Shown here one piece after another: positions 4,030 to 56,600 of a stretch of DNA of 64,000 nucleotides. This DNA comes from a virus (Duplodnaviria > Caudoviricetes). The stretch's first letter is position 1. Each line of letters begins with the position of its first letter. The stretch spans positions 1-64,000 of the IMG/VR virus record IMGVR_UViG_3300012665_000528; one strand, given 5' to 3'. A program made the translations under genes and the position numbers. The notes under the pieces are model-generated. The model did not search any database. It was not told where the DNA came from and worked only from the letters and a program-made list of their open reading frames with translations.

Positions 4030-4563
4030 CTACTCTACTCCATCCCAATGCTTGTTATCCTCTTCCCACCAGAAAGTAGGCATATCCTCACAATACATTC
4101 CAACTACATCACACTTAAACTTAGATTGTACTCTCTCTACCAATGCCACAGTAATAGGTCTCTCAAAACCAAACTCATCTATCATCCTACTCATCCAAGT
4201 ATAATTTCCCCCAGTAAGTATACCAGCCTCAACTAAAACAATCTTACTTACACTTCGTCTCCACTTACCTAACAATATCCTAAACTCTAACTTACACTCC
4301 TCAATAAACTCCTCATCACTATCAGGAAAAGAAACATCAGCACTATCATAATAAGGAAAAACTCTATCTCTACTTAACCCATGTAACACCCTCATCCCTA
4401 CTATACCACTATAGTCAGGACTAACACATACTACTAACACATCATCTACCTTCCAATCCCCCCACTCCTTACTCATAACACCCTTTAAACCCTCTATAAC
4501 CCTACCTATACCCTGTTCCTCTATTTCCTTACTTATATCCATATTACAAATATACTCCACCAC
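4030..4563 (-). CDS. Phosphoribosyltransferase-fold-like protein (likely start 4542)
   Basis: IVLVEAGILTGGN resembles the PRPP-binding loop (hhhhDDhhxTGxT); preceded by TATATTTG. Confidence 0.45.
   Translation of the reverse strand: MVEYICNMDISKEIEEQGIGRVIEGLKGVMSKEWGDWKVDDVLVVCVSPDYSGIVGMRVLHGLSRDRVFPYYDSADVSFPDSDEEFIEECKLEFRILLGKWRRSVSKIVLVEAGILTGGNYTWMSRMIDEFGFERPITVALVERVQSKFKCDVVGMYCEDMPTFWWEEDNKHWDGVE
4547..4554 (-). promoter_or_regulatory. Bacteroidota-type -7 element TATATTTG
   Basis: CAAATATA on plus strand, 4 nt upstream of ATG 4542. Confidence 0.6.
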
Positions 4564-7186: not shown

Positions 7187-7768
7187 ATGAGCACAGTTAA
7201 CGCTTACTCCGCTTGGTTAAACGGCAAAGGTTCCGTTTCCGTTCTATGTGGCACTGAATCTGATTCACTTGCTACCTTCTCACTTGGTCTATCCGCTAAA
7301 TTAACACGGACAACCATTCATGTTTTTGCTCCTGCAGTATTCGAAACCTCTTTCGGTATTGCTATTGACAAAATCCAAGGTTCTGATTCTAAGAACCCCT
7401 TTCGTTTCATGGACAATGGCATCAAACCCATCAACCTTGAAAGTGTATTCGGACGTGCTGTACGTATCCAAATCGTTGAAACATCTGACTTTAACGAGGC
7501 AGTTGGTTACAAAATTATCAACGAGAAAGATGCCAATGGTGCTTACATCATTCGTGAATCTGCCTACAAGTTAGACAGAGAGACAAAGTCTAGGGTAACA
7601 GACAGCAACGGTAACTTTGTGTACCGCAAATGCTTCCTCCGTCCTGACATTGCTAAGTACGATGACGTAACTACTCAGGTAGCACAGTCTAACACAGTGG
7701 ATATCAACTCGTTAACCGAGAATGTTCCTGTAGAAGAAGATGCGAATGTGGACAATGTTCCCTTCTAA
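7187..7768 (+). CDS. Putative ssDNA-binding protein (beta-rich, acidic tail ending VPF)
   Basis: Acidic-aromatic C-terminus EEDANVDNVPF; fold not verified. Confidence 0.45.
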   Translation: MSTVNAYSAWLNGKGSVSVLCGTESDSLATFSLGLSAKLTRTTIHVFAPAVFETSFGIAIDKIQGSDSKNPFRFMDNGIKPINLESVFGRAVRIQIVETSDFNEAVGYKIINEKDANGAYIIRESAYKLDRETKSRVTDSNGNFVYRKCFLRPDIAKYDDVTTQVAQSNTVDINSLTENVPVEEDANVDNVPF

Positions 7769-7781
7769 CATCAACTAAATT

Positions 7782-7804
7782 AGCACCCTTCGGGGTGCTT
7801 TTTT
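7782..7804 (+). terminator. Intrinsic terminator
   Basis: AGCACCC-TTCG-GGGTGCT + T run. Confidence 0.8.
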
Positions 7805-8197
7805 CTTCATTAAATTACCAAAAATACAAGTACCACCTACTCTATCATCTTAAGCCCTTAATTAGAGTGACCTAACGCCACCATTACCATTCTGCTTTTC
7901 TTTCTTTCTTATAATTGTAATTAATAACTAATTTATCCGTAAATTCCCTATTGTTCTCGTATATTTATTTAATTGTAAGTTATTGATTCATAATATGTTA
8001 GAAGGAATAAAGGGGTAGCACTCCTCCCTAGTCCTCAACTATTGAGGTAGAAAGGGGTAAACTGAGAAAAAATAGCAGCGTGTTAATATACCTAAATAAA
8101 AGTTTGATATGGGTGTCTTACGGTTTCCTTGGAGTTAGGGCAGTTACTTGTTTTTCTTTACCTTACTACGACTAATACCTTTATCTAATAGGTTTAG

Positions 8198-8462
8198 TTA
8201 ACTGCACTATCAGTTCTAACACAAGAATAGTATGTTGTGACTTTAAAAGGGATATCAACGGTTTGTGTTACTTTAATGCACCATAACTCACTTCCAAAGG
8301 GTGAGCAGTTGTAATCACACAGAGCGTCTCCTCACTACCCATAGGATATGGGTGCTGCATAAAAAGCAGGTAGTAAAGAGCTTCGGGCTCAGGATGTCCT
8401 GATAGGTAAGATGTGATGTATATTGGTTTTGAGTATACCCAATAACAACTGAGTGCAGCTGG
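8198..8462 (+). ncRNA. Candidate multibranch ncRNA 2 (~265 nt)
   Basis: Nested helices CTGCACT/AGTGCAG, TAACACAA/TTGTGTTA, CAGTTGT/ACAACTG plus several internal hairpins; no ORF. Confidence 0.6.
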
Positions 8463-8472
8463 AAGTAAAAAT

Positions 8473-8562
8473 GGCCCTCTCGTCTAATGGTTTCCTTTGG
8501 GAATATAGGACAACAAGATTTTATCTTGGAGAAAGTGTGTTCGAATCACCTGGGGGCTACCA
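8473..8562 (+). tRNA. Atypical tRNA-like gene, anticodon most simply TTT (Lys), with enlarged D-loop and encoded CCA
   Basis: Acceptor GGCCCTC/GGGGGCT + A-CCA; D stem GTCT/GGAC; TTCGAAT T-loop; anticodon loop ATTTTAT at 8518-8524. Confidence 0.65.
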
Positions 8563-8696
8563 CATAGCGATTAGTGAAGTAGATAAAGATGACTGGCGGC
8601 TTATGTCGTCAGTTACTCTTTAGTTTATCTTCCTCTCTTCACTTCGTTCCGTTCGGATTTTTCTTTTCCTTTTTACTTACTAACTAATTAATCGCT

Positions 8697-9077
8697 ATGA
8701 GAACAAGAAAACTAAAAACAGTTGATGGTATTACCTATGAGAAGGTTGATACATCACGGTTCTTTAAAGTACGTGTACGTAACTTTAGAAGTGCCCTTCG
8801 TAAATTTGAATCTATTAACCACAGAGAGATTAAAGAGATGTTCTCTTTCTTAAGTGTTAACTCTATTCTTACAGACAAAAGAGAGGCTAGACTCTTATTA
8901 TCTGTTAGGGAGTCTTATGAGGAGTCTGTGACTTTTGTCGATACTGTAAAAGTGCCTACAAAATTCATAGAAACAGGAAGCTTTGGGTTTAACTACCCCA
9001 AATACACTCCTACTAACTTCATAGACCAGTTGAGAACAGTTACAGAAACTTTACCTACTGTGAAATGGATTGATTAA
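8697..9077 (+). CDS. Hypothetical early protein
   Basis: ORF track; motif upstream, hairpin downstream. Confidence 0.7.
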   Translation: MRTRKLKTVDGITYEKVDTSRFFKVRVRNFRSALRKFESINHREIKEMFSFLSVNSILTDKREARLLLSVRESYEESVTFVDTVKVPTKFIETGSFGFNYPKYTPTNFIDQLRTVTETLPTVKWID

Positions 9078-15417: not shown

Positions 15418-15723
15418 ATGGAAAATATAATGCCCGAATTAACTGCAGAACAACTTAATGCAGTTGTAGAAAAGAAAGCCCAAGAGATACTTGAGATGTT
15501 TGAAACAGCACTTAAGCCTCACTACGATTTGTCTCTAGAACACAACTCTGAGAAGACACTTCGTCAAATGATTAAAGCATGTAGCTTAACACACATCACT
15601 CCTTTTATAGATCCACTAGAAAAAATACCCCAAGATAAACTAAACGGTGCTGCTATGGATAGATTAAAGATGGTGGTAGAGTTTTGGAATGGAGTAAAGT
15701 CCGTACTAAACAGTTACGAGTAA
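15418..15723 (+). CDS. Hypothetical protein
   Basis: ORF track. Confidence 0.65.
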   Translation: MENIMPELTAEQLNAVVEKKAQEILEMFETALKPHYDLSLEHNSEKTLRQMIKACSLTHITPFIDPLEKIPQDKLNGAAMDRLKMVVEFWNGVKSVLNSYE

Positions 15724-15832
15724 CTCAACAAACTTACTTTTAATTAAATCTTGTGTCAAGAGGGTCCTAATAAGGCCCTCTTTTTCTTTTCCATTATATC
15801 TAACTAAAACTAAAAACAAAAAAGAACTTATT

Positions 15833-34470: not shown

Positions 34471-37400
34471 ATGCCTAGTAATCCATTATTACCTCAGGAG
34501 TTATTGTCCTTCATTCAAGCATCTGCACAGAATGGCATTAATCCTCCCAGCCTGCCTTCTGGATATGTTTATGCTACTCCACCAACAAGTGACGGGCATT
34601 TATACTTAAGAAGGTTTGATGCTGCTTATATTCAGACAGGAATCATTGACCCTAATCGTTTGGGTACAGGGGCTACAGGTGCAGGTAATCTTTACTTAGC
34701 CGATGACGGAGTGTGGAAACCTGTTGCAGGAGGAGGTGGAGGTGGTGATATGTATAAGGCCACTTACGACACAGACAATAGTGGAATCGTAGACAAAGCA
34801 GAAGCCTTAATGACCTTGGGAAGAAACTCTACAGGGGCTGTTCTACGTAAGGGTACAGTAATCAGAATACAAGGCTCAACAGGGCATCTTCCTAATTTTG
34901 TAAAAGCCCAAGGTAACAACGATGCTAACTCGGCACAAACCTTTGGTGTAGTTGCAGCGGACATAAACAACAACTCAGATGGGTATGTTATTGTTCAAGG
35001 AACGATTGATACTTTAGATACTCGTTCAGTAGCAACACATCCTTTTACAGACGTAACTTTAGCAGATGGAGATATTCTTTATCTTCACCCTACCATAGCA
35101 GGTTATCTTACAAATGTAAAACCTTCTGCCCCTCAACACTTAGTTTACGTAGGGGTCGTAACTAGAACCTCTCCAACTAACGGAACAATAGTTTATCGTA
35201 TTCAGAACGGATACGAGTTAGATGAGATTCATGATGTAGCTATTTCTTCAAAGACCAATAACGATCTTTTGGTTTATGAATCGGCTTCATCTCTTTGGAA
35301 AAACAAAACCTTCTCAGCAATCTTTGGAGGTACTCCTTTGGTCTCAGTTCCTACACTTGATGCAGTTACAACGGCTGGGAATACGACTACTAATGCGATT
35401 ACTGTAGGTGGGTTTACAAGCAATGCAAGTTCAACAATTGTTGGAGCAGCCGCAGGAACCATTGGTACAAGAGTTCTCACAATAGAGGGAAGTCATCCCG
35501 AAATATGGTTTAAGGATACTTTTGTAGGAGAGCCAAGTTTTGCGTTAAGTCAATATGGAAGTGCTTTTTACTTTGCAAGAACATCAAGTACAGGAGTATT
35601 TACAAGTTATGCAGGAGCAATAGTTGGCGCTAGATGGTCTTTTGGGCATGGTGGAAATCCTACTGCTACTGTACATATTAAAGGTTCTGATGTATTGTCC
35701 TCTACAAAAGCATTCCTTGTTCAAAACAGTTCTCCTAGTGATTTATTAACTATATGGAATGACGGAGCAGTAGGAATTAACACATCTACCAATGCAGGAT
35801 ATAAGTTAGATGTTAATGGGACTGCGAGAATAGTAAATAAAACAAACATAGGTAGTGAGACCGTTTCTCAAGGATCATTATACATTGGGCATAACGGAAC
35901 CGCTGGTGGAAGTAATGGAACCTCAACTGTATTCTTTGTGTCTCAGTTTGGAAACTATCCTTATAGACTAGGGGCTGAAGGTAACGGATATGACTTTTAT
36001 TTAAGACAAGCAAATGGAGGTCAAGGGAGTATAAATATTGACTTTAGTGGATTAAATAGTATTTCTTACAACATAACAAATACAAATGTATTAAATCAGT
36101 CTTTTGGAAAAAGCGTTGTTATAGACGCTAAAATGAGCCTTAACTCCTACTTAGCAATAGGAACACGTTTTGGGTATAGCGACTCAGTTACAGCAGGCGA
36201 TAGTCCGTTGATATTCTTTAGATCAATGAGTGGCAGTTACTATGATAAAACATTAGATGCTGCTGTGACTATTCGTAATGGTTTACCAACAGTTGCTGAT
36301 AATAACATTACCAAAAATACAGCATATTGGTATAGAAACGGATATATCGGAATAGGAACTTCAACAACCCTCTCTGCAACAAATACATTAAAAGGTGCAA
36401 TTACTATAAACCAAGGGACAACAATAGGATATCAGAACCTAACCCCTGGAAGTTTATCGTCTGTAATTACGTCTGGAACATCTGCAACAGTAACATTTAC
36501 TCCAAACAACGGAAATGGAGTTCCAGGATACGATATTATTGTAGGTACAATTATCACAGCCAACGGAGTTAGTAGAAGAGTAACAGCAGTAAATTACCAA
36601 AGTGTCACAGTTGACAGCGCAGTAGATTGGAGTGCAGGATATAACTATACTTATAGAAATCCATACGTAAGTATAGCGGATGGGTCTACACCAATTTTTG
36701 ATATATCTCCGTCAGGAAACGTAGGTATTGGAACAACAAGTCCAACAGCTAAGTTACATATAAAAGGAACAGGAGATAGTTCTGTTTGGATAACTACAGA
36801 CGATTTTAATGGTGGAACCAATACTGGATCTGTTATAAGAATTGGAACAAGAAATTCAACTGGAAATACGGCAGGTTGGATTGACACATTAAACAACGGT
36901 TACTCTTCTTATGGGAACTTAATGCTTAATGCTTTTGGCGGAAACGTACTCATAGGCACTACTACCGATGCAGGATATAAGTTAGATGTTAATGGGACTA
37001 TGAGGGTAACTGGAGTTGCGTCATTAAGTTCTATAGCATCTCAAACAACTATTGTTAATGGAGCAGTATTTAATGCAGATACAATCAGTTTTAATATTAT
37101 TGGTGGTAGAGGAAATAATCAAGAAGGAATTTTAAATCTAACTAGCACAGTAGGTTCTTATACTCCAAACTTTGGTGGAATTAAGAATATGCTTAATATT
37201 GGTGGAAACTTTACAGTAGGAACATCAGCTACAGGAGATGTTAACTTTCTTAATATTAATCCAACAATAAATTACCCAGTTGGGTCATCTGGAACTCAAA
37301 GAGGAATATACATTAATCCTACATTAACAAGAGTAACCAACTATAAAGCAATTGAAGTAGCTCAAGGTGTGATAGTTACGACTTCACCAATCACAGCAGC

Positions 37401-39477
37401 CTCACTACTTGCACAAGGAGTATACTTTAACAACACTTTAGTAGCAGCAGCAAACAATGACGTATTAGTAGGACTAGACATCAATCCTACGTTTACAAAT
37501 GGTGCGTTTACGGGGGTACAGAATTGGGGTCTTAGAGTACAAAGTTCAAATATACTTTTAAGTACTACTAAAGGAATTTATTTTGGAAACTCAGGTTATG
37601 GTATTACTGGAGAAGTAGGACTTGGTTCTTTAAGTTTTTATACCAACTCAACCGAAAGACTTAAGATTGATAACGCAGGAGCAATTACTGCTGGAGGTAC
37701 TGGTCGTTTTGCTAGTATTTTTTTAACAGGTTCTAACATTCAACTGTTAAATGGATTATGGTATTTTAACATTGAAAATGATGGTAATGGTCTTCAAGTA
37801 AAAAACGTTACTGGAAGCAACACTGTACCGTTTAGAATATTTAAAACAGATAACGTAGCAATAGGAACAACCACAGACTCAGGATACAAACTAGATGTAA
37901 ATGGTAGTAGTAGGGTAAAAGGCTTGGATAATAGTTCTTCAACTACAGCATTTTTAGTACAGAACACGGGAGGATGGGATAATTTAAAAGTAACTAACGA
38001 TGGACAGGTTTCAATTGGTGGTAATGGATTGACAACTTTTCCTTTGCTAGTTTATGGGAATAGCGGTTTACAGATACGAGTTGGTAACAGTTTTTTTTCT
38101 TACGATGCAGTCAGAACAATTCGTTTTATAAATTCAAATAACGGAATACCTTTAAATCATGAAGTTGTTAACCAAGTATCATCAACTGATAATTCAAATT
38201 ATGTATATTTTAGAAATCAAACTATACAAACGGCAGGTTCAACTGCTCCTTGGAAAGGTATTTCTATTGAAACTCCTGTTAACACGCAAACTTCAGCAAT
38301 AGTTACGCAACTTTCAATTACACCAACGTATGATCTACAAGCAAATACAACAAGTGCATCTATTCAAAGGGGCATATATTATAACCCCACAATTACAACA
38401 TTACAAACTGCAATACACAGAGCAATAGAGACAACTAGTGGTGATGTAATATTCAATACACAGACAGCAACAACCAACGCAGGGCATACCACTATGGCAA
38501 TCGGTGGTAGCACTGGAGTTTATTTACAAATGTACGTAGGTACAAATCCAGCAGCACAAACACTAAGAGGACAAATCTGGGCAGTAGGAAATAACTTACT
38601 ATTTAATAACCCATCAACAGGGTATCTAGGGCTATATACGACTCTTTACAGTGGTATTACTGTTTGGCCAACTACGGGTAATGTTTATGTAGGAGCAAGT
38701 CCGTCAACGGATACTGGGTATAAGTTGGATGTGAGTGGTACGGCTAGAGTTAAAACTGACCTAAAGATTGAGACAGGGACCGGTGGCTTGACGATAGAGG
38801 GAGATGCATCTGGCTACCCTACTTTATCAATAAATACATTGCGCTCTGGCGTAGACAGAAGAAATTGGAAGTTTGCAACAGAGCAAGTTACCGTAGGTGA
38901 TTTTATTTTCTACAGAAGTTCTACAGGGGGCGGTGCTGCAAATACTGTTGTGTACGCTGTTTCTAAAGATGGTAATTTTGGGTTAGGCACGTCTTCTCCA
39001 TCTTACCCTTTCCACATCTCATCTGCTGCGGCTGCTAATATATACGGAACAGTTCAATCTACAAGTGCAAGTGGAACAGCAGCGTGGGTAGCCTTTAACG
39101 ACCAGAGCGATAACGTGGTTTATCGTGTATTTGGTTCTACTGTTGGTGGTACACAGTTTGGACAATCTCTAGTACGTAGTGCAAGCTTAATGGTTAACTT
39201 GGGAGGTGCTGGTAAGTTCTTAATCGGTAGCTATTCTGCTACAGACGTGGTATTTGGAACAAGTGACACAGCCAGATTACGCTTAGTTGACTCTACAGGA
39301 AACTTCTTAATAGGCACAATGACAGATGCTGGTAATAAACTAGAAGTAAGTGGGTCAATAAACGCCACAGACTACAAGGTCGGTAATGTGGCAGGTTGGA
39401 ATGGAATCATTAACATCCCTACTATGCCTCCTGTTATGATAACTGTAACTAATGGAATTATTACAAATGTTATGTAA
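34471..39477 (+). CDS. Modular tail fibre / receptor-binding protein
   Basis: 1668 aa, G/T/N/S-rich; five (I/V)G(T)xxxx(A/S/T)G(Y/N)KL(D/E)VxG linkers and several GIGTTSP motifs. Confidence 0.85.
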   Translation: MPSNPLLPQELLSFIQASAQNGINPPSLPSGYVYATPPTSDGHLYLRRFDAAYIQTGIIDPNRLGTGATGAGNLYLADDGVWKPVAGGGGGGDMYKATYDTDNSGIVDKAEALMTLGRNSTGAVLRKGTVIRIQGSTGHLPNFVKAQGNNDANSAQTFGVVAADINNNSDGYVIVQGTIDTLDTRSVATHPFTDVTLADGDILYLHPTIAGYLTNVKPSAPQHLVYVGVVTRTSPTNGTIVYRIQNGYELDEIHDVAISSKTNNDLLVYESASSLWKNKTFSAIFGGTPLVSVPTLDAVTTAGNTTTNAITVGGFTSNASSTIVGAAAGTIGTRVLTIEGSHPEIWFKDTFVGEPSFALSQYGSAFYFARTSSTGVFTSYAGAIVGARWSFGHGGNPTATVHIKGSDVLSSTKAFLVQNSSPSDLLTIWNDGAVGINTSTNAGYKLDVNGTARIVNKTNIGSETVSQGSLYIGHNGTAGGSNGTSTVFFVSQFGNYPYRLGAEGNGYDFYLRQANGGQGSINIDFSGLNSISYNITNTNVLNQSFGKSVVIDAKMSLNSYLAIGTRFGYSDSVTAGDSPLIFFRSMSGSYYDKTLDAAVTIRNGLPTVADNNITKNTAYWYRNGYIGIGTSTTLSATNTLKGAITINQGTTIGYQNLTPGSLSSVITSGTSATVTFTPNNGNGVPGYDIIVGTIITANGVSRRVTAVNYQSVTVDSAVDWSAGYNYTYRNPYVSIADGSTPIFDISPSGNVGIGTTSPTAKLHIKGTGDSSVWITTDDFNGGTNTGSVIRIGTRNSTGNTAGWIDTLNNGYSSYGNLMLNAFGGNVLIGTTTDAGYKLDVNGTMRVTGVASLSSIASQTTIVNGAVFNADTISFNIIGGRGNNQEGILNLTSTVGSYTPNFGGIKNMLNIGGNFTVGTSATGDVNFLNINPTINYPVGSSGTQRGIYINPTLTRVTNYKAIEVAQGVIVTTSPITAASLLAQGVYFNNTLVAAANNDVLVGLDINPTFTNGAFTGVQNWGLRVQSSNILLSTTKGIYFGNSGYGITGEVGLGSLSFYTNSTERLKIDNAGAITAGGTGRFASIFLTGSNIQLLNGLWYFNIENDGNGLQVKNVTGSNTVPFRIFKTDNVAIGTTTDSGYKLDVNGSSRVKGLDNSSSTTAFLVQNTGGWDNLKVTNDGQVSIGGNGLTTFPLLVYGNSGLQIRVGNSFFSYDAVRTIRFINSNNGIPLNHEVVNQVSSTDNSNYVYFRNQTIQTAGSTAPWKGISIETPVNTQTSAIVTQLSITPTYDLQANTTSASIQRGIYYNPTITTLQTAIHRAIETTSGDVIFNTQTATTNAGHTTMAIGGSTGVYLQMYVGTNPAAQTLRGQIWAVGNNLLFNNPSTGYLGLYTTLYSGITVWPTTGNVYVGASPSTDTGYKLDVSGTARVKTDLKIETGTGGLTIEGDASGYPTLSINTLRSGVDRRNWKFATEQVTVGDFIFYRSSTGGGAANTVVYAVSKDGNFGLGTSSPSYPFHISSAAAANIYGTVQSTSASGTAAWVAFNDQSDNVVYRVFGSTVGGTQFGQSLVRSASLMVNLGGAGKFLIGSYSATDVVFGTSDTARLRLVDSTGNFLIGTMTDAGNKLEVSGSINATDYKVGNVAGWNGIINIPTMPPVMITVTNGIITNVM
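35792..36999 (+). repeat. Identical 32-bp direct repeat in the tail fibre (35792-35823 and 36968-36999)
   Basis: ATGCAGGATATAAGTTAGATGTTAATGGGACT at both positions. Confidence 0.85.
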
Positions 39478-45935: not shown

Positions 45936-48900
45936 TTAATCAGGGTCACTAAAAGAACTATCTTCTATAGGTTCTAGTTCTCTTAGTTGGCTTTTAAGAG
46001 TTCTTATCAAGTCTCTAGTGTATTTCTTTTCAGTACGTATAGACTCCTCATAGCTTTCACTCTTCTCAGGTTCTGGAATACGAATACCAGGCATAGCTAC
46101 CTTTAGTAACTTATCTAGTACTTTGCGTGACTCTTGTCCTTCTTTTGCTGCTATCTTCTTTTCTTCTTCGTAATCACGGATAGCATTGTTACTACCTTGC
46201 ATTTCTACTTTAGCTAGCCTTCTTTCTGCCCACTCTAAAAGATTAGTTCTAAACTCTTGTATGTTCTCAGACTGTAAAGCAGTCAAGTCACCTGATTCGT
46301 AGCGTTCAATGTTTCCTAAGTTCCTAGATAATAAACTCTTTTGTAACTCTTGAATTTTAATATCATTCTGAGTGTACTCTCCTAAAGGATCACTTAGGGC
46401 TAACTTTGGATTCAACTTAAGTGTTTGTTGTAAAACTCTTTTAGAGTCAAGCACGGGCTTTAATCCTAACTCTGCTCCGCTAAGTTTAAGTACAGCGGCT
46501 TTCCATCTAGCCAATCCTCTAGTAGGTACTGGAGTATTTGCTATACTTCTACCGCCTATACCACCTCTACGCTGCTCATAGTAGTTCCCAAAAGGATCAG
46601 TCCATAAGTCTGCATCAAACAATACGTTTATTAGTTGGTCAAAGCTTCTTACCTGCTGTCCTACAAGCATATAGGCAATGCCTGTAGCCATATTTTGTAC
46701 TCGTTTGTCTTCATCTCCAGGTTCTGCCATAGGTTGTCTAAACCCAATCTTATAAATCATATTTGCAGTAGCTAGTATCGGATGTAAACTTATGTATTCA
46801 TCATAGGTTCCCAATGCAATAAGTGCTAAGTAAGATAATGTATTGTCATCATCATCACCTCCCATACTACTAAGAACTAAACCTATAAGAGATTGTGCAA
46901 GTACGTGTAACCCTAATACATTTACAGTATCTCTAGCTATTCTTTGATATTTTTCTCTGTCTAGTGGCGTGCTTTTTAAATCTAATCTTTCTCTATGGGC
47001 TAGGTATCGTAGCTTCCTAAGAATTGCCCTACCTCCTGCACGATAAAATCCTTCCTCTACGTTCCCAGTATAAAGACTTAGTCTTTGTCTACCATAGTTA
47101 GTCTGTAGTGAAGGCATCAACCAACGCTTCATACTAAGTAAGAAAGAAGTTAGTACGTTACCCTCATAGTAAGAACGAGTTCTTGTGAAGTAGTTACCCT
47201 GTGTGCTAGTGTAGAGTTCGTGTATCTGGTCTCTTAAGTACTGTTCTACTTGACGTAGCTTCTCTCTCTTTACTTGGTTAGACTCTTCTAGTGACTTAAT
47301 CTTATTGTCGTGCTTTTTAAGTAAGTCATTTAGAGCAATCTTTTTAGGAGTAGACAAGCCCTCATAGTTTGGAACTTGTGCGGTTGCTAGGTAATTGTTT
47401 ATGATTTGTGCACGTTCTACCATCAAACTCCTCATGGCATTCTGCTCTAAACCAAACACACCCTCTTTAGGTACTAGGATGCCGTCTATTACATCGTAAG
47501 CATCTTCTAATTTAATCTGTACTTCCTGTCCGTTAACCATCATAGGTACGGTCATACGTGCCATCAATGCCTCATAGATAGGAATTGTAGAAGACATCTC
47601 TGTATAACCAAACACTTGAGAGTTAAAGTTCTCTAAACTTGCGTACTTATAGATATTACGTTGGTTTACATTGTTTGCTCTTGATGTTGGGTTTGCACTA
47701 GGTAAAGCCCTAAAGTACATTAACTTTAATGCATAATCATTATACTGACGAGACCCATTCTCCAACTGCATTAAAGTAGTATGATTCTTAAGTCCCTTGA
47801 ACCAAGCTTTTAACAACTCTGCTCTAGTTAGTCCATATCTATTTTTAGACATCATAATCTTTAAGAAGTTGTTGAATACGTTCTTAAAGACACGTGTAAT
47901 GTTAAACAGCAAGGCTCTGGTTTGAGTAAACTTAAACAGTCTTCTAAAAGTACGAGACATTATCTTTAAGTACTTGTTACTTGGGTTTCTAACCTGACCT
48001 CCAAAGAAGAATCTACTTATCTCGTTGTCAATAACATCTAAATCATATTGAGGTACTTTAGACTTTACTGGACCCTCACCTTCTAGGGCTTCTCTAGCTG
48101 CAAACATTGCAGGCATAGCTTTTTGTAGTCCCTGAAACTCTGCTGCATACACTCCATAGTTAGCTAACGTCTGAGTTAATAGGTGAGATACTTGGTAAAC
48201 ATTTAAAGGTTGTTTGTACCTAGTCTTAATTAACTGTGCCTTACGACCCTTACCTCTGCTCTCTGCATTTTTATTGGCTTGAATAAGACTAGATTCTACT
48301 TCGTCTATGTCTTCTCCAGGAAGTCCCTCTCTCCATATAAGTTTTATACTATCAGCAAAAGTATGAACTCTTGTTTTAAAGTTCTGCTCACGTACTCTTT
48401 CTTGTCCACTCTTAACTTGGTTGGGTACTACATAACCTCTAAGTCGTTGACTTGAAGGAAGTTTCCTTTGGATGTCTTCGTACAAACCTACTAAATCATC
48501 TACCAAACCTTTGTCTTGAGAATCTAACTTCTCATACTCTAGGTTAGTATACTTGCCGTCAGTGGTTTCTTTGGGTCTTAAATCACCTAGGAAATTATAA
48601 TCTTTGTTCTTGTACTCGTCTCTTACCCTAGGAATAGTCCATTCAAAGCTAGGGTTCTCTTGTCTGATATATTTAGCAGCATCTGTTGGAACAGTCTTAG
48701 TCCAAATGTAAATAGGACGCTCAGTAACTTCCGTAAGTACCTCTCCCGAATCTTTGTCTACTTTATTCCGACTTATGATTATGTGGTTCGCTTGGTACCA
48801 ATCAGTTTGCTTTGTTCTCTTGCTAACTTCCTGAGAATATAAAATACTATAGTAAGCATCTATTAGATTTTTTCTATAGATAGCAGACTTCAGGTCACTT

Positions 48901-51900
48901 AAACTTTGAGCTGTAGGTAACTCATCTAAGGCACTAGGGTCTGAGAAAATATCTACATCTAAATGGTCTCCCTCTGTCTCAATATAGTGGTCAGCCATCT
49001 TCTCAGCTTTATCCTGCATCTCTTGCAGTAATACTGTTTCTGTTGCTAACCCTCCACGTACACTACGTTTAATACTTTCTAAAGCTTCGTAGTAGTAAGT
49101 TGTTTTTTCTTTTGTTTGAAGTGCAAATAACTTTTTAAAGTATCCTCTTAAAAGTAACTTGTCTGCATCACTCATATTACGATTGTCTTCAGCAGCATCC
49201 TTCAACATCTCTATCTCTGCCTCAATGGCCTTAATAGTTTGACTTAAACCTAGTTGTACTGAAGAACCTACTATAACTCCGTCTTGGTCTCTAAAACCTT
49301 TAACAGCATTAAAAAGTCTAGTGTATGCATCTGTAATCTCTGGACTCTCTCCATACTTAACAAACACAGCTTTAATCTGATCAGCAATGGTTTGCTGTGC
49401 TGCAAAGAACTTAGGGTCTATCTCAACCTTAGTGTTACGTGAAATCCACGTAGCTAAATCATTCTGAGCTTGAACTAAATTTGCTTTTTCTTCAAAGAGT
49501 TTTTCTTGAAGAGCAATAGTACTTTGACCTAAAGCTTCAGCATCTGCTAAGTTTATCTCAAGAATATTGATACGAGTCTTTGCTTTACTTACTACTTCTT
49601 TACGACTCGTCTTTTCTATGTCGAACCGTTTTAATACAGCTTCAGGAATAGTAAACTCAACAACGTCTAGGTCTTTTCTTTTCTGCTTGTAGGCAATGAT
49701 AGATTCAGCTATGTTTCTTTCTTTGGTACCTACTGGTTTCTCACTTCCGTCTTCATTGAATATGGAACCTAACCTTTCGTATTGTCTTCTAAGGTCTCCA
49801 CGTATCTTACGGTCTTCTTCTGTACTGTCAACGTCTCCGAATATATCTATGTTCTGTTGGATGTCGTCTAGTAACTCTGTTCTAGCTTGACGTGCTTCCT
49901 CAGACAAAAGTGCTTCTGCTTCATAGTATTCCTCTGTGTATCTACCTACTGCATATCTTTCTTGGAAATCTCCCAATGCTTTTTCTGCTGCAAGTATATC
50001 AGCCTCTATTCCTGACTTCTCCGCTAACTCTAAGTTCTGCTGTAGATCAAGTAGGTCAGAATAAAACTCTGCTTCTTTAAACTTAGTGTTATAGGCTAAC
50101 TGTTTTATTTTAGTTCTTCTTCCCTGCTCATCGTAGTAAATCATATCTACCTCACGAGTCAACCCTTGATAATGGTTACTAACAATCTGACTTGGGTTTA
50201 AGATTCCTTTATTTCTATTCCTCTCTTCTACTCTGCGTTCTATTGCTTCAGCTCTTATAGTTGTAACTTGACTTGAGTTCTCTGCCTCTGTCAAATGGAC
50301 ATCTAGGAATTGTTTAAGTACTTGAACCATAGGGCTACCAGAACCTGTAGCTATACCCATATAAACAGAAAATATGTTACCCCCTTTGTATCTAGGGTCC
50401 ATACCATTCTGCAATAGATTTTTTATATTCTCCGTAGTAGGAACCCAACTTAACAACTGCTCTAAGTTCTCTACGTCAGAAGTAAAATCTTTAATTCTTT
50501 TAGGTTCATTCCTTGCTACTGCATCTGCTAGGGCTTCTCTCTTAGCAGTTAATTGTTGGTTTAGTTGACTGTCAGGTGCTTTTATCTTATCTGCCATAAG
50601 TCTAAAAGACTTTGACAACTCTACTGCAACAGGAGTCAACATAGCATCTTGTGCTACTTGTCTAAGTTGTTCTGCCTTACTACGTAGATTTAATAACTGC
50701 TCGGTTAATTGCTTAACTGTTGTATCGTAATTTTCAATCTGTCTTCTGCGTTCATTTTCAAAGTCACCTTTTTTATATGGATCTTCTTTGAACTGATCCA
50801 AAGTAATATTCATTGTTAACTCTGGCAACAAGTTAGTCTGAAAGTTTATTGCCTGTTCTTGGAGTAACTCTGCAAGATTTTTAGTATAGTTAAACTGCTT
50901 GATAGCTTCAGCAGCTGTAAACTGTGCTAGATTATTGTTTGTGGTATTTGTATTTCTTTGTACCCTATTCAATAATTCTGTTAAAGTATTAATGTAATCT
51001 ACCGATGATGTTATTATATCTGCTACACCTGCAGTAGATACGTTACCTAGTTTTTGTTTGATTCTTTCTATAGAACCAAAACGAGGATCTATTTCAGACA
51101 AAGCCTGGGACATTTGTGCCCAAGTAGAACTGTTTAAACTTTCTCGTACGAATGCTTGGAACTTACTTAAATCTACTGCAGCAGGTGTTGGAACTGCACT
51201 AGTGTAGGGAGCATTAAACCTTAACTGATGCTCTCCTGCTAAGTCAGGCATATCCTCTAAACTTTCTAAGTAATCAAAGTACTCGTTTAAGGTAGTGTCT
51301 AAATCATTTAAAGATACGTTTGTAAACTGACCCTTTAAAAATCTTTTTATAGTTGCAACAAGTCTTCCTAGTAAGCCAGTATTCTTAGCTTTCTGTTCTG
51401 CGTCTTGCAGGTCTTCTCTAAAATAAGGATTAGATAGATACTCACTTACAAACTCTTCAGTATTCTTAAACCCATAGTTATTCTGAAGTAAAGGAAAGTT
51501 ACTTCTGTATTGGGATAGATACCTATCCATCTCTTGAGAGAATTGTATCTCTGCAGGAGTTTGAGGGTTAGTCAAAGCGTGGATAGTGTATGCGTGTAAG
51601 GTCTCGTGAATAAGCTCCCTTACAAAACTTTTACTATTAAAGTCAGATGAAACTGTCTTACCTACGTATACCGTGTTGGTTTTAGGATCATAGAAAGACC
51701 TCTGATACTCGTCTGCTACAGTGGCATCATCAAATACTACCAACTTTAAAGTTGGATTAATTCTAAGTAAGCTACTAAGTCTGGTTAAGATTTCCTTCTG
51801 GAAGTTCTCTATCTCCCCGCTATTAACAACTCCGTCAATAAGTTCTTTTAACTGTGCATTAGAAAAATCCTGCACGCTGTTGACTATCAAAGAAGGAAAC

Positions 51901-52952
51901 TTTACTTTGTTTAAGTATACTTTACTTACAGGCTTTAATGGCTTTTGTGCTGGAGCAGTTGAAAGAGATTTGTTATCTGCTGAGTCAAGTACTTTTACTT
52001 GCTCTGGATTAAATACAATAAACTCAAGTGCCTTATTCAAGTTCAACAAATCTCTGTTGTCACGGCCTTTTACATTATTGTTTATGTTTTGATTCTTAAT
52101 GTACTCATCTATCGCTAGACTCTCATCTGTACTTACAGGTACATACCTATCGTACCTATACTCAGGGTGAGTTATTACACCATCGTATCCAGCATCTTTT
52201 AACTTTTGTATGTCTGCTTCTTTTCTTATCTCATTGTTTGCAGCGTAGTATGGATTCTTGATATTTAAAACTGCTCCATACTTAGTAGCACCATACTCAG
52301 AGAACATTTCAACATTCGGAGTAAAGAATAAACCTGTAGGTCGGCCTTCTGTAAATCTAGTTGCAGGTTCGTTTGTATTGTTGTAAACTACAATAGCATT
52401 TCCGTCTGCATCCGCAACAACAGAATCTTTTGTAAACTCGATGTTATCACTCTCTATAGTACGTTTGTCTAACCTCTGCTTAAACTCTAAGGCGTTCTGT
52501 GTAGTAGGGATAGCTGGTTTAACTGATAGATAATATTTACCATCACGAGCTACTACCTCACTTGTAATTAAATCATACTTAGGATTTAGATTAATCTCTT
52601 CGTGGATAAACTCAAAGGCATTGGGATTTGTATACCCTATGTTCAAGTATCCCAAGGAAGCTACCTCTTCTATTTGTTCTGCTGACCTAATCTCTTGGTC
52701 AGTCATATTCAATCTAAGATGTTTGTTAATCTCTTGTATGCTAGGCTCTCCTACAAAGTTTAACTTAGGACTATATCCTAGCTGTTGCTTTGTCCAGTCA
52801 AAACCAAACTCTGTTTTAAATGTATTTGTAGTCAGTGCTTCATAAATACTCTTACCTTGTGCAGGTGGGAAGAATGAAGTCAACTGATAGTATGCAGGGC
52901 TTGTAACTTGAAGACCTGACAGGGGGGATTTTATGGTAGCAAAACAAGACAT
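45936..52952 (-). CDS. Giant virion cargo (polyvalent) protein with ART-like and zincin metallopeptidase domains
   Basis: VVADADGNAIVVY..GLFFT..LNIKNP..GYDGVI..EFIVFNPEQVK; ELIHETLH..EEFVSE; hydrophobic helices near the C-terminus. Confidence 0.85.
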   Translation of the reverse strand: MSCFATIKSPLSGLQVTSPAYYQLTSFFPPAQGKSIYEALTTNTFKTEFGFDWTKQQLGYSPKLNFVGEPSIQEINKHLRLNMTDQEIRSAEQIEEVASLGYLNIGYTNPNAFEFIHEEINLNPKYDLITSEVVARDGKYYLSVKPAIPTTQNALEFKQRLDKRTIESDNIEFTKDSVVADADGNAIVVYNNTNEPATRFTEGRPTGLFFTPNVEMFSEYGATKYGAVLNIKNPYYAANNEIRKEADIQKLKDAGYDGVITHPEYRYDRYVPVSTDESLAIDEYIKNQNINNNVKGRDNRDLLNLNKALEFIVFNPEQVKVLDSADNKSLSTAPAQKPLKPVSKVYLNKVKFPSLIVNSVQDFSNAQLKELIDGVVNSGEIENFQKEILTRLSSLLRINPTLKLVVFDDATVADEYQRSFYDPKTNTVYVGKTVSSDFNSKSFVRELIHETLHAYTIHALTNPQTPAEIQFSQEMDRYLSQYRSNFPLLQNNYGFKNTEEFVSEYLSNPYFREDLQDAEQKAKNTGLLGRLVATIKRFLKGQFTNVSLNDLDTTLNEYFDYLESLEDMPDLAGEHQLRFNAPYTSAVPTPAAVDLSKFQAFVRESLNSSTWAQMSQALSEIDPRFGSIERIKQKLGNVSTAGVADIITSSVDYINTLTELLNRVQRNTNTTNNNLAQFTAAEAIKQFNYTKNLAELLQEQAINFQTNLLPELTMNITLDQFKEDPYKKGDFENERRRQIENYDTTVKQLTEQLLNLRSKAEQLRQVAQDAMLTPVAVELSKSFRLMADKIKAPDSQLNQQLTAKREALADAVARNEPKRIKDFTSDVENLEQLLSWVPTTENIKNLLQNGMDPRYKGGNIFSVYMGIATGSGSPMVQVLKQFLDVHLTEAENSSQVTTIRAEAIERRVEERNRNKGILNPSQIVSNHYQGLTREVDMIYYDEQGRRTKIKQLAYNTKFKEAEFYSDLLDLQQNLELAEKSGIEADILAAEKALGDFQERYAVGRYTEEYYEAEALLSEEARQARTELLDDIQQNIDIFGDVDSTEEDRKIRGDLRRQYERLGSIFNEDGSEKPVGTKERNIAESIIAYKQKRKDLDVVEFTIPEAVLKRFDIEKTSRKEVVSKAKTRINILEINLADAEALGQSTIALQEKLFEEKANLVQAQNDLATWISRNTKVEIDPKFFAAQQTIADQIKAVFVKYGESPEITDAYTRLFNAVKGFRDQDGVIVGSSVQLGLSQTIKAIEAEIEMLKDAAEDNRNMSDADKLLLRGYFKKLFALQTKEKTTYYYEALESIKRSVRGGLATETVLLQEMQDKAEKMADHYIETEGDHLDVDIFSDPSALDELPTAQSLSDLKSAIYRKNLIDAYYSILYSQEVSKRTKQTDWYQANHIIISRNKVDKDSGEVLTEVTERPIYIWTKTVPTDAAKYIRQENPSFEWTIPRVRDEYKNKDYNFLGDLRPKETTDGKYTNLEYEKLDSQDKGLVDDLVGLYEDIQRKLPSSQRLRGYVVPNQVKSGQERVREQNFKTRVHTFADSIKLIWREGLPGEDIDEVESSLIQANKNAESRGKGRKAQLIKTRYKQPLNVYQVSHLLTQTLANYGVYAAEFQGLQKAMPAMFAAREALEGEGPVKSKVPQYDLDVIDNEISRFFFGGQVRNPSNKYLKIMSRTFRRLFKFTQTRALLFNITRVFKNVFNNFLKIMMSKNRYGLTRAELLKAWFKGLKNHTTLMQLENGSRQYNDYALKLMYFRALPSANPTSRANNVNQRNIYKYASLENFNSQVFGYTEMSSTIPIYEALMARMTVPMMVNGQEVQIKLEDAYDVIDGILVPKEGVFGLEQNAMRSLMVERAQIINNYLATAQVPNYEGLSTPKKIALNDLLKKHDNKIKSLEESNQVKREKLRQVEQYLRDQIHELYTSTQGNYFTRTRSYYEGNVLTSFLLSMKRWLMPSLQTNYGRQRLSLYTGNVEEGFYRAGGRAILRKLRYLAHRERLDLKSTPLDREKYQRIARDTVNVLGLHVLAQSLIGLVLSSMGGDDDDNTLSYLALIALGTYDEYISLHPILATANMIYKIGFRQPMAEPGDEDKRVQNMATGIAYMLVGQQVRSFDQLINVLFDADLWTDPFGNYYEQRRGGIGGRSIANTPVPTRGLARWKAAVLKLSGAELGLKPVLDSKRVLQQTLKLNPKLALSDPLGEYTQNDIKIQELQKSLLSRNLGNIERYESGDLTALQSENIQEFRTNLLEWAERRLAKVEMQGSNNAIRDYEEEKKIAAKEGQESRKVLDKLLKVAMPGIRIPEPEKSESYEESIRTEKKYTRDLIRTLKSQLRELEPIEDSSFSDPD

Positions 52953-52958
52953 TATTTA

Positions 52959-52966
52959 CAAATTTA
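52959..52966 (-). promoter_or_regulatory. Bacteroidota-type -7 element TAAATTTG
   Basis: 6 nt upstream of ATG 52952. Confidence 0.6.
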
Positions 52967-52984
52967 ATCTATTTAAGAACTAAA

Positions 52985-53596
52985 TCAAGGTGCTTCACAA
53001 CTCGTCTCCTCAAACCCTATACTACTAAGGTCTGGAGCATCGGCAGCACTGGTCTTATCTAAAGACAAAGTAAGCTGTAAGGGTTGTTGTTTCAGAGGAG
53101 CTTGGTATACTGGAGTATCAACTATTTCATAGGAAGTTTCTGTTACCTCAAACAAACTCTCTTCTAAATCGTTAAGCTCTTGTAAGGCAAGTGCTGAGTC
53201 TTCATTATAAAAACCCTCTGGTCTGTAGTTTACAGGTATCTCAAAAGCTTCTTGTAGGGATAACTCTTCGTACTTTACTTGATAAGAAGTAAACAACTGA
53301 GGCGTAATATAGATTTGAATTGCTGCTCCATCCTTATAACTTACTCCCCCAAAGACAGAGCCGAACTTAGCTCTAGGTATATTTAACTGGTTAGCTATTG
53401 TTGCAGCAGCCCTATTAACTATACTTCTTACTTTACTTACTGTATCTCTTGTTGACTCCTTAGTATTTAAAGGTAAGAATATTTCCCCTGTCCGTAGTAA
53501 TCTAAAGTCCTTATTCTCTACTTGTGCAATCGTAACTGCTTCGGGAGTTATCTGACTTTTGATTGTTTGAAATGATACTTTACATGCTTGTGCCAT
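52985..53596 (-). CDS. Small protein between the giant cargo genes
   Basis: 203 aa; Cys only at positions 5 and 200. Confidence 0.8.
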   Translation of the reverse strand: MAQACKVSFQTIKSQITPEAVTIAQVENKDFRLLRTGEIFLPLNTKESTRDTVSKVRSIVNRAAATIANQLNIPRAKFGSVFGGVSYKDGAAIQIYITPQLFTSYQVKYEELSLQEAFEIPVNYRPEGFYNEDSALALQELNDLEESLFEVTETSYEIVDTPVYQAPLKQQPLQLTLSLDKTSAADAPDLSSIGFEETSCEAP

Positions 53597-53600
53597 AGTC

Positions 53601-56600
53601 TTATCCGCAAGGATTTATATTAGGTAAGTTATTAATATCGTTTTGGTTAGGAGTTGTAGAGGACTGAGATACTTGAATTCTAGGTGTAGCACCTGTGTGA
53701 TATATTGTAAACTTAGCTCCTATTTCTTGTAAGTAATCTATAAATTGAGAGTCTACATTAGGCATGTCTCCTACTACAAAAGTTGCTCCTTGTTCGGATA
53801 GTACTTTAATTTTTCTTTTTGTTTCTGCAGACAACACTTGTCCTGCAAGCTTTCCATTTCTTGCTAGCATTACAACTAACGATTGACCTTTTAGTTTAAT
53901 AGAAGCGGAATCTATCTCATTAACATATTTATTCTTGTCTCCATCTAGATATCTTGCTCCTGAAGTATTAGGTTCTTCTCCTTGTTTTTGAGCTATTTCT
54001 TTAGCAGAAGTCAAAGTAGAACCTTTACCATTCTTAGAAAGTTCTCCTATAAATACATTAGCAACTTGTCTCATTGCTTTATCCTTACCATCTCCTTGTG
54101 GAGTTCCTTTACCTGTGTTTTCAAAACCACCTTGGTATCCTTGGAATCCTTGAACAGTAATAGACGGTTGAGTAGGTTTATTTACTACTTCAAACTCTAT
54201 AGCATAAGGATATTGACCTACATTTTTATCAGTTACAGATTTTACCCATCCTTCTTTTTGCCAGGTAGCATCTTGATATTCTTGTGTAAATGGAGTAACT
54301 TTAGTAATTCTAGTATATACTTGTCTTCCTGTTTTATCAGTCATTCTTATAACTTTACCTACAAGATCTGATATTTTAGATAAACCATAATCCTTAGACA
54401 TTCTTTGTATGTCAGTATTAGCTCTAGTAGTTCTAGTTCTATCCCCTGATATAATAAGATCCATAGTAGACTTTCCTTTAAACTGCGGTTGCATTTGACC
54501 GCCTTGACCATCTGCAAAGTTTTGTGCTATAGGTGTTAGTTTATCTGCTAGGTTAAATTCATCAACACTAGTAGATGGTTGAGTAGCCTCAGTAGGCATA
54601 CTCTCAGGTGAGTATACGCTGCGTTCTAGTGTAATCAAACTCTTTACTACTGAGTCCTGTAACCTCATAGTTTTTAACTTCTCTGGGTTTGTTCTAGCTA
54701 AGAAGTCTATACTTGTAGTTATAGGTGATAGTGTAGTACTGAACATCTTAGTAGCATATCTTACGAGAGTCAAATAGGACTTGAACTTTTGTGGTTCTTC
54801 TTTCCTCATTGTTTCCAACTCGTTGTGCGATTTAGTTGTAAACTCTATGTAAGCTTCATGTGGAACAATAGCAGATACGTTGTCAGTATTAAAGTGACCC
54901 CCGTACTGCATAAACGAACCTAGTGCTAAGTCAGTAAAGAATTCTTTGACTTCAGGTATTGAACTGTTCAATCCCTCTAAGAATGCCGTTCTGTATAATT
55001 TGTTAGTCTCAGGCACTACAACGTTCTTTAACTTAAAGTTTATCTCTCCAGACAAATGTATTTCTGGGTAGAGATTTTGTACTACGTAATTCCTATTAAA
55101 GTCAGGGTCGCTAATCAATACTTCAAATCTCTTTGCTAAGTTGTTAGGGTTTGTCTTTTGCATAACCCCGTTCTTACCTCTATAGTAATCTAGTAAGTTA
55201 CCCTTCTCGTTAGTAGCTGTCTTTTGAGTGTAGTTAAAAAGTAAGTTTGTCTTTAACCTCTTGATAGCTTTGATGCGATCTTCTTGCCCTACAATACTAT
55301 TCTTGTCTAAGAAGGTGTTTATAGTCTCGTGAACTTCTGTAGAGTCAGACAACGGGTAAATCTTACCCATAATCTCCTGCACAAATCCACTAACATTAAA
55401 CTGAGCTAATGCAGACTTGTTAAACATAAAGTCAATTGCATCAACATTAAAGTTTTCTTTCAAACCACCCTCTTTAGCTACAGTGTCTGTACTTTGGAAT
55501 GAAGTTCTATAGTTTGTAGTATTGAAATCACTTATACTAGTTAACTCCCTTAGTCCTCCTTGTTGAGCTACAACTACACCAAACTGCAACAAGTAGGCAA
55601 TATTTCTCATTGCTTTGTCTTCCGCACTAAGTTCTGCACTGGGATTAAAGTTTGTAATGTATTGACTAAGTGTAGGTATGCCTAACATCTTCTCAATGTA
55701 TATAGCTAACTTAGGTTTAGATCCTTTGATACCAGCAGTTTTAATCTCAGCTTCAATGCTAGCAACAAACTTTTCTAAATTTTTATTACCTGCTTTTGGT
55801 ATGTTGTTTTTAATTAATGCTAGAATAGCTGAGTTCTTACTAACAAATACATCAGAAAGTTTCTTATGCACCTCTGCTCTATCTGATATTGTTAGAGCTA
55901 GTTTTATTACATCAGAGTTCAAGAAGTCCAATATATCTTCTACAGGCGTTCCTGCAAGAATCATTGCGTGAGCCAATGGACTTGTCTGCTCGTTAAGTCC
56001 TAGAAGAATAATCCAGTCTTCATTTGCAATGTCCACGTGTCCATTTACAAACTCACTCAATACCTTAGATATACGATTTTTTCCTACGGCATCTTTTTTT
56101 CCACCCAACATTATCTGACCCTCAGCATTTCTATTTGCTCTAAAGTAATAACTGTTGAACAAACTAGAAGTATACGTTAGTCCTGCCCTCTGAAACTCCT
56201 TCTGAAGAGTGTTTATCTTAGCATCAATACCTAATGCATCCTTAGAAAGAATGTTCTCTAAGAAGATTCTCCAAGAAGTCATTGGATTAAATACATCAGT
56301 AGAAGTAATCTTCTTACCTGGTTTTACATACTGGGTAAGAATGCTATTATTATTAGGTGTAGTCAAAGAGTCGTATAACTCTCCTGTCTTGAGTACTCCT
56401 TTGATTGTATTTATGAGTTCGTTGTGTAATGACTTTTTAAAATTGTCTACTACTGCAATCTCACTCTTTACTTCTTTAATGTCTTTTCTTACTTCTGCTA
56501 ATATAGACAACGCTTCGAATGAATTCTCCCTATCTAGTTTACCTAACTCGGCAAACTTACGGGCAATTTTTTTCTTCTCCTTGCGTATACCAACCAATAC

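Follow-up and report, generated by a model that had tools for sequence, protein, structure and literature searches.

A Predicted Twister-Type Ribozyme Upstream of a Phage tRNA-Like Gene and the Phage Subfamily to Which It Belongs

Introduction

What does a phage encode in a 930-nt gap (7769–8696) that holds no open reading frame (ORF), is flanked on either side by plus-strand genes, and contains a series of complementary segments? The initial annotation of this locus had read positions 8198–8462 as one multibranch RNA of 265 nt, with an outer helix enclosing two domains, and had called it unclassified, with a ribozyme, a decoy, or a scaffold as guesses at its function. The window (the whole stretch of DNA analyzed, 64,000 nt, to which all coordinates refer unless another locus is named) is the start of a 75.9-kb IMG/VR virus record that is approximately 65% complete. 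The DNA polymerase of this record is nearest to those of crAss-like phages (33–38% identity) and of a cyanophage. By comparing the locus with related phage sequences, we arrive at the reading that positions 8268–8468 probably form a twister-type self-cleaving ribozyme of type P1 (i.e., one that ends in P1), belonging to a large subfamily that occurs in phage contigs and lies outside Rfam.

Twister ribozymes are built from the stems P1, P2, and P4 and two pseudoknots: T1 joins loop L4 to the 3′ strand of L1 through three Watson–Crick pairs and an A–A contact, and T2 joins the dinucleotide after P2, canonically GC, to two bulged bases of L4 (PMC5408937, PMC6154101, PMC11662667). They have a U–A scissile step adjoining P1, a conserved A, a P2 of 4 bp, and a general-base G right after the 3′ strand of P2; among known examples, the optional stems P0 (just upstream of the 5′ end), P3, and P5 occur in 21%, 78%, and 1%, respectively (PMC5408937, PMC6154101, PMC11662667). 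Chemically, twisters are well understood, and their biological role is almost unestablished. A sizeable phage subfamily that Rfam models leave unscored offers a specific case in which to ask what a phage gains from self-cleavage.

Results and Discussion

Genomic Setting of the Gap

The RNA at 8268–8468 lies, as the initial annotation had placed it, in the ORF-free gap directly upstream of a tRNA-like gene; the further proposal made there, that it heads an RNA-only transcription unit, is a conjecture. The remaining landmarks of the gap, with the evidence for each, are as follows (L-numbers denote loci fetched from IMG/VR).

7782–7799, plus strand: terminator-like hairpin closing the upstream gene (ORF 7187–7768); consensus scan, seven pairs followed by a T run, common to L002–L008
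8473–8562, plus strand: tRNA-like gene, 4 nt downstream of the ribozyme; alignment with the standard tRNA-Glu(UUC) of L003 (4506–4580)
8590–8615, plus strand: hairpin past the tRNA-like gene, a possible terminator whose T tract is weak; consensus scan only

Compared with the tRNA-Glu(UUC) of L003, the D-loop of the tRNA-like gene is longer by approximately 14 bases, its anticodon loop is of the UUU type, its first pair is G–U, and its T-stem contains a mismatch; L002 carries a different insert of 12 nt at the same position of the D-loop. Neither ARAGORN nor Rfam calls the gene at 8473–8562, and ARAGORN reports no tRNA or tmRNA in the window.

Several features of the surroundings were recorded in passing. 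The approximately 390 nt between the upstream terminator and the conserved leader (7810–8197) contain no ORF and do not resemble the closest relatives in sequence. They include T-rich and CT-rich motifs that could be promoters and that are similar to motifs ahead of other genes (e.g., near 8640–8690 and 15780–15830). Two giant ORFs of 2,338 and 2,702 aa (45936–61709, minus strand) and an ORF of 1,668 aa (34471–39477, plus strand) have no PHROG match at E ≤ 1e-5. A blastn search of 7770–8700 against 50,697 GenBank phage records returned no match. In a search of 185,579 species genomes for a host, eight matches were obtained, mostly on short contigs; no host call is possible, because all eight are in MAG records of mixed, probably mis-binned taxa.

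Relatives of the RNA and Its Boundaries

The gene upstream of the gap has seven relatives in IMG/VR, and the RNA is common to only two of them, L002 and L003. In L004–L008, the upstream gene and a tRNA-Glu are kept, with neither a match to the ribozyme nor similarity in the spacer. Aligned with L002 and L003, the window is 93–94% identical over 8198–8315 and 8441–8470; the part between these blocks comprises approximately 17 nt in L002, an unrelated insert of approximately 107 nt in L003, and approximately 125 nt in the window. An additional insert of 65 nt is found in L003 within the loop of the hairpin corresponding to 8287–8305.

Beyond these near relatives, a 21-mer from the core was found exactly in 23 IMG/VR contigs with unrelated flanks, and many further copies were recovered with a 14-mer taken from the 3′ part. 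An alignment of 36 short copies (A2) has a structure of four nested helices and two pseudoknots, and a covariance model (R1) was built from the nested helices alone, with the pseudoknots left out. R1 scores the window at 82.8 bits (E 2.5e-20) with a conserved unit at 8263–8474, detects 77 copies (E < 1e-12) among the IMG/VR phage loci that were fetched, and finds one copy in the whole source record. A candidate second copy at 15450 was rejected as a chance match within a gene. It should be noted that the invariance of P2 and of the base of P5 in the family is partly built in by the exact-word search patterns. The boundaries initially drawn at 8198 and 8462 are replaced: the conserved RNA occupies 8268–8468, starting near 8268 rather than at 8198.

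The family shows a fixed genomic habit. Copies lie between co-directional genes, sharing the orientation of the nearest ORF downstream in 63 of 68 cases and upstream in 68 of 72, and overlap with an ORF (≥80 aa) is seen in only 5 of 85 distinct copies. Each of five long phage records checked (100–122 kb) has one or two copies, which are close together. A tRNA directly downstream, as in the window, is rare in the family and otherwise found only in L002, L003, and L149; in most other phages, the ribozyme stands ahead of protein genes, not of a tRNA.

Covariation Evidence for the Fold

Folded as a single sequence, the plus strand reaches −70.9 kcal/mol with z = −1.38, and 17 of 200 shuffles fold as well. 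This is no better than chance, and support for the fold therefore rests on comparison with related copies. In the A2 alignment, 92% of cells are paired and 16 of 30 pairs show double changes, values that none of 500 shuffles reach. In the larger alignment of 77 copies, 92.2% of cells are paired versus 80.9% in shuffles, and compensatory changes are present at 21 of the 30 pairs; again 0 of 500 shuffles equal the observed values, and in slid controls pairing drops to just 31–42%. Broken down by helix, the covarying pairs are five of five in P4, seven of seven in P1, two of three in T1, and two of four in P2. Judged by this comparison, 8268–8468 is a real conserved folded RNA. The proposal of a structured noncoding RNA on the plus strand is thus borne out by the family covariation, which in the related copies extends to the pseudoknot T1.

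Comparison with Twister Ribozymes

The elements that make up the core of the RNA in the window are the following.

8268–8273, plus strand: 5′ strand of P1, pairing with 8463–8468; compensatory changes at all seven family pairs, 68% of cells paired, six pairs formed in the window
8274–8276, plus strand: predicted cleavage site between U8274 and A8275, then A8276 (5′ strand of loop L1); family conservation and spacing
8277–8280, plus strand: 5′ strand of P2, 4 nt, pairing with 8454–8457; 100% paired in 75 distinct copies, two pairs with one compensatory change each
8281–8282, plus strand: putative 5′ half of T2 (CC), complementary to G8299 and G8300 in L4; 99% paired
8287–8305, plus strand: stem P4 (8287–8291 with 8301–8305) and its 9-nt loop L4 (8292–8300); all five pairs covary, 100% paired
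8294–8296, plus strand: 5′ half of T1 in L4, pairing with 8460–8462; 98% of cells paired
8454–8459, plus strand: 3′ strand of P2 (8454–8457), G8458 at the general-base position, and C8459; family conservation
8460–8468, plus strand: 3′ half of T1 (8460–8462) and 3′ strand of P1 (8463–8468); R1 model and family alignment

The strands follow one another in the order P1, P2, T2, P4, T1, T2′, P4′, P5, P5′, P2′, T1′, P1′. Twisters of type P1 (Oryza sativa Osa-1-4 and env22; Roth et al. 2014) have the same order of P1, L1, P2, L2, P4, and L4 and the same pseudoknot T1, and their T2 has a putative counterpart here. The likeness extends to single bases: U–A followed by A at the cleavage site, a P2 of 4 bp, an L4 containing UCCCAAG, and, on the 3′ side between P2 and P1, a G–A followed by the three T1 bases; the optional hairpin at the P0 position is shared as well. 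At the predicted cleavage site, the family has U in 73 of 76 copies and A in all 76 at each of the next two positions, and the general-base position is G in 75 of 76 (G8458 in the window). Relative to P1 and P2, the U–A step is placed and spaced as in the twister of O. sativa, in which the scissile bond is U6–A7. Four bases separate the general-base G from P1 and one separates P1 from the conserved A, which equals the O. sativa numbering U6/A7/G45 (54-mer). The L4 consensus U-UCCCAAG-G agrees with the rice sequence UCCCAAGC at seven of eight positions, with one extra U.

Although T1 was outside the search model, two of its three pairs exchange C–G for A–U jointly, in 17 and 8 sequences, respectively. 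The single C-to-A change in the L4 of the window is compensated in T1, and the resulting A–U pair is common to 17 copies. Variation in T2 is one-sided only (C-to-U, giving a G–U wobble), with no double changes, and the first C of T2 could instead extend P2 by pairing with the base before the P2 3′ strand. At the A–A contact flanking T1, one side is A in all 76 copies and the other in 75 of 77. The second of these positions is the base after the general-base G, where the window is one of two exceptions in the family (C8459) and so has A/C at the contact. In the high-throughput assay CHiTA, an A-to-C change at the T1-side A–A contact was tolerated (PMC5408937, PMC6154101, PMC11662667). With the compensated A–U in T1, C8459 in place of the conserved A, and one A–A mismatch in P5, the window copy appears, on paper, to hold nothing disabling.

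The phage family departs from known twisters in several respects. P3, which most known twisters have, is missing, and the P5 position is occupied by a stem in every copy; the T2 bases read CC/GG where GC/GC is canonical; one U is added to L4; and the near-invariant G–C pair closing L4 is not retained, the closing pair varying within the family (C–G, A–U, and others). Rfam at gathering thresholds, run over the whole window, gave no match for 8268–8468, and at E ≤ 10 only chance-level matches were obtained for 7700–8750, for three short loci, and for a 121-nt slice of L070, the shortest copy. The absence of an Rfam match, as initially noted, thus holds at both levels. RF03160 and related twister models likewise found nothing, even at E ≤ 10, in the source record and five others. 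This failure may plausibly reflect an obligatory and large P5, the lack of P3, and altered T2 bases. The class, twister, is a known one, and the RNA is not a new RNA class; the subfamily is absent from Rfam 15. Its traits are an obligatory large P5, no P3, an altered T2, optional arms in L4, and P5 contents that are modular. A literature search turned up no description of twisters in crAss-like phages and none of this subfamily. The label “unclassified” no longer applies: the RNA agrees with twister in the order of its stems, in T1 and the putative T2, in its loop sequences, and in its spacing; of the functions guessed at the outset, ribozyme is the one to which the fold points by comparison.

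Other classes were considered and set aside. Twister-sister ribozymes resemble the RNA in their multistem junction, similar-looking loops, and association with phages; they lack pseudoknots, however, and cut the opposite strand, whereas here T1 covaries, the conserved A–A is on the 5′ strand, and no Rfam match is seen. HDV-like ribozymes form a nested double pseudoknot with the strand order P1, P2, P3, P3′, P1′, P4, P4′, P2′. The strand order found here does not fit this arrangement, and here too there is no Rfam match. Hammerhead, hatchet, and pistol ribozymes, RNase P RNA, tmRNA, a group I intron, a riboswitch, and a put-like antiterminator were rejected on strand topology, missing signature motifs, or a missing Rfam signal.

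A conserved arm of two hairpins is present inside L4 in many members of the family (L003, at 4283–4347; L017, L020, L026, L047, L060, L103, L136, and others). It follows the P4 5′ strand, precedes the first conserved U of L4, and has conserved internal-loop sequences of its own; the window copy is without it.

The Leader and Alternative Readings of the Locus

Upstream of the ribozyme, two further elements are shared with the near relatives.

8198–8216, plus strand: lineage-specific 5′ leader, with a small local hairpin and the 5′ strand of the “outer helix” (8202–8208); identical in L002 and L003, absent from all other copies
8217–8270, plus strand: hairpin bordering the ribozyme on its 5′ side, in the P0 position (“domain I” of the initial annotation); sequence complementarity, conserved in L002 and L003 only, with one-sided changes

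All of the complementary segments from which the 265-nt structure had been assembled exist in the sequence: 8202–8208 with 8452–8458, 8217–8224 with 8263–8270, the hairpin 8287–8305, 8306–8312 with 8445–8451, and the inner arms. Their fates in the family differ. The hairpin 8287–8305 is P4, with its full covariation, and the helix 8306–8312/8445–8451, proposed as the closure of a second domain, shows compensatory changes. Domain I survives as a hairpin at 8217–8270 and does not extend family-wide, being confined to three sequences; it has 3 nt in common with P1, and in many other copies its place is taken by an unrelated hairpin. The outer helix is unsupported by the family, because its 3′ strand is that of P2 together with the catalytic G: in 77 copies this strand pairs with 8277–8280 and carries G8458. 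The partner strand 8202–8208 is present only in the window and in the near-identical relatives L002 and L003. A single multibranch RNA of 265 nt is also at odds with the predicted cut between 8274 and 8275, which would split the 5′ third (8198–8274) from the rest.

A version of that proposal nevertheless has to be weighed, namely that 8198–8462 acts as one scaffold or decoy in this lineage, with the twister fold unused and the ribozyme silenced by its leader. L002 and L003 share both the outer helix of 7 bp and domain I with the window without a difference. With constrained folding, the outer-helix fold reaches −70.5 kcal/mol, near the unconstrained minimum of −71.7 and below the −62.2 of the nested twister part, so that the competing leader fold is favored by approximately 8 kcal/mol, a nearest-neighbor figure in which the pseudoknots receive no credit. 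Twisters with a P0 stem-loop were, moreover, cleaved less in the high-throughput assay (PMC5408937, PMC6154101, PMC11662667). Against this reading, the outer helix and domain I lack informative variation, and every catalytic and pseudoknot position is retained in the window, L002, and L003, a sign of continued selection on the twister fold. The contents of P5 differ wholesale among the three (approximately 17 nt in L002, the unrelated insert in L003, and a 135-nt module in the window), a misfit with one integrated RNA of 265 nt. We consider this reading distinctly unlikely. The pairing of 8202–8208 with 8452–8458 may instead be a lineage-specific, ribozyme-blocking alternative fold that hides the P2 3′ strand and G8458, as the folding energies would allow.

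It is also unlikely, in our assessment, that the family is a conserved pseudoknotted leader RNA that merely resembles twister and does not cleave, serving as a protein-binding platform, in processive antitermination, or as an mRNA-stabilizing element. Such a role would suit the position of the copies in intergenic leaders of co-oriented genes and the failure of the Rfam twister models, and there are relatives with a tiny L4 and a T1 partner in the 5′ flank that cannot be twisters and yet keep the rest of the scaffold. The invariant positions are, on the other hand, the catalytic and tertiary bases of twister at equal spacing, and one would not expect a protein scaffold to retain the A–A and G-A-GGG loop strands together with the sequence of L4 and both pseudoknots. 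That the locus is a repeat at the level of DNA (a promoter, a recombination site, or a mobile-element remnant) and not a functional RNA is extremely improbable: a core that is near-identical across phages with unrelated flanks and P5 contents that are swapped as modules would be in keeping with it, but compensatory changes maintain Watson–Crick and G–U pairing on one strand, including in the long-range pseudoknot, and the orientation is fixed relative to the genes. A twister-type ribozyme thus remains our preferred reading.

The relatives with a tiny L4 were found at L035 (10120–10235 and 10727–10900), L053 (11802–11938 and 12518–12651), L075 (6529–6655), and L073 (903–1028). They keep the scaffold of P2, P4, and P5, with an L4 of 2–4 nt, lack the U-A-A site, and have a plain long helix. 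One L053 variant searched against Rfam at E ≤ 10 gave chance-level matches only. These relatives may be degenerate or functionally different derivatives.

Proposed Processing of the Transcript

In the fold obtained by comparison, P1, P2, and P4 stack in series, and L4 reaches back to pair with the 3′ strand of L1 (T1) and, putatively, with the dinucleotide that follows P2 (T2). By analogy with the twister class, the transcript would cut itself between U8274 and A8275, with G8458 as the general base and A8275 as the general acid. An upstream piece consisting of the leader and the P0-position hairpin (8198–8274) would be left with a 2′,3′-cyclic phosphate, and a downstream piece consisting of the ribozyme and the tRNA-like RNA with a 5′-OH. 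The mechanism with the best support is a cotranscriptional cut, which would part the upstream RNA from the downstream unit and set the 5′ end of the transcript that contains the tRNA-like gene; RNase P would then separate the ribozyme from the tRNA-like RNA. From its context, the role of the ribozyme is likely the processing or insulating of co-directional phage transcripts. We infer catalysis, its timing, and the benefit to the phage from a fold established by comparison.

A precedent for such an arrangement is found among HDV-like ribozymes. The “theta” ribozymes are small self-cleaving RNAs adjoining phage tRNA genes, a position that suggests tRNA or transcript processing, and they lie 3′ of the tRNA. 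The adjacency to a tRNA is alike in the two cases, whereas here the ribozyme is 5′ of the tRNA-like gene and of another fold class.

The P5 Insert and Its Nested Module

Between the 3′ strands of P4 and P2, the window contains a large insert composed of a stem and a second conserved element nested within it.

8306–8451, plus strand: stem at the twister P5 position (from the P4 3′ strand to the P2 3′ strand), greatly expanded, equivalent to “domain II” of the initial annotation; family alignment
8313–8445, plus strand: conserved module of approximately 135 nt nested in P5; copies 86–91% identical (133 nt) within the P5 of L064, L137, L076, L149, and L150

We assign the stem to P5 because the order of elements in the twister literature and the numbering of env22 fit this position. 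Its base helix (8306–8312/8445–8451) is 99% paired, with compensatory changes at five of nine pairs. The stem is present in every copy of the family, and its inner part ranges from approximately 17 nt (L002) to more than 180 nt. Twisters thus accommodate inserts at the P5 position, which no copy of this family is without and which in the window include a separately conserved RNA module; such inserts bear on the annotation of ribozymes and on the design of ribozyme switches.

The module itself is also found without the twister core and closed by a different stem, in L040 (6470–6618), L145 (7529–7684), L147 (394–549), and L151 (3610–3764). Within it, compensatory support, amounting to a few changes, exists for the hairpin 8379–8391, the helix 8315–8320/8413–8418, and the hairpin 8422–8444; the remainder, including two small arms at 8338–8368, is invariant. 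The module has no match in Rfam (E ≤ 10, 7700–8750). A second covariance model, built for the P5 module, found no diverged copies, and its internal structure is for this reason weakly tested. We interpret 8313–8445 as a separate conserved RNA module that was captured in P5, and in its stand-alone form it may have a function of its own as an RNA. A more ambitious reading is that it is an independent functional RNA, either of a new class or a domain that senses a ligand or a protein, and that when nested in P5 it gates self-cleavage, possibly together with a leader sequestering the P2 3′ strand and the catalytic G. We regard this as doubtful; if true, the locus would represent a natural allosteric twister controlling the release of a phage tRNA-like RNA.

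Public RNA libraries that share sequence with the window are freshwater and river metatranscriptomes only, and the evidence from them consists of assembled contigs. These hold the conserved ribozyme core, from other copies, and also a near-identical P5 module joined to different downstream sequence. One contig matches 8316–8469, a stretch that takes in the P5 module and the ribozyme's 3′ part, with just two differences, and runs on into downstream sequence like that of L015 and L018, not into the tRNA-like gene; this swapped downstream sequence suggests modular exchange between phages. Stand-alone copies of the module are in several cases located just past a stop codon or shortly ahead of a start codon.
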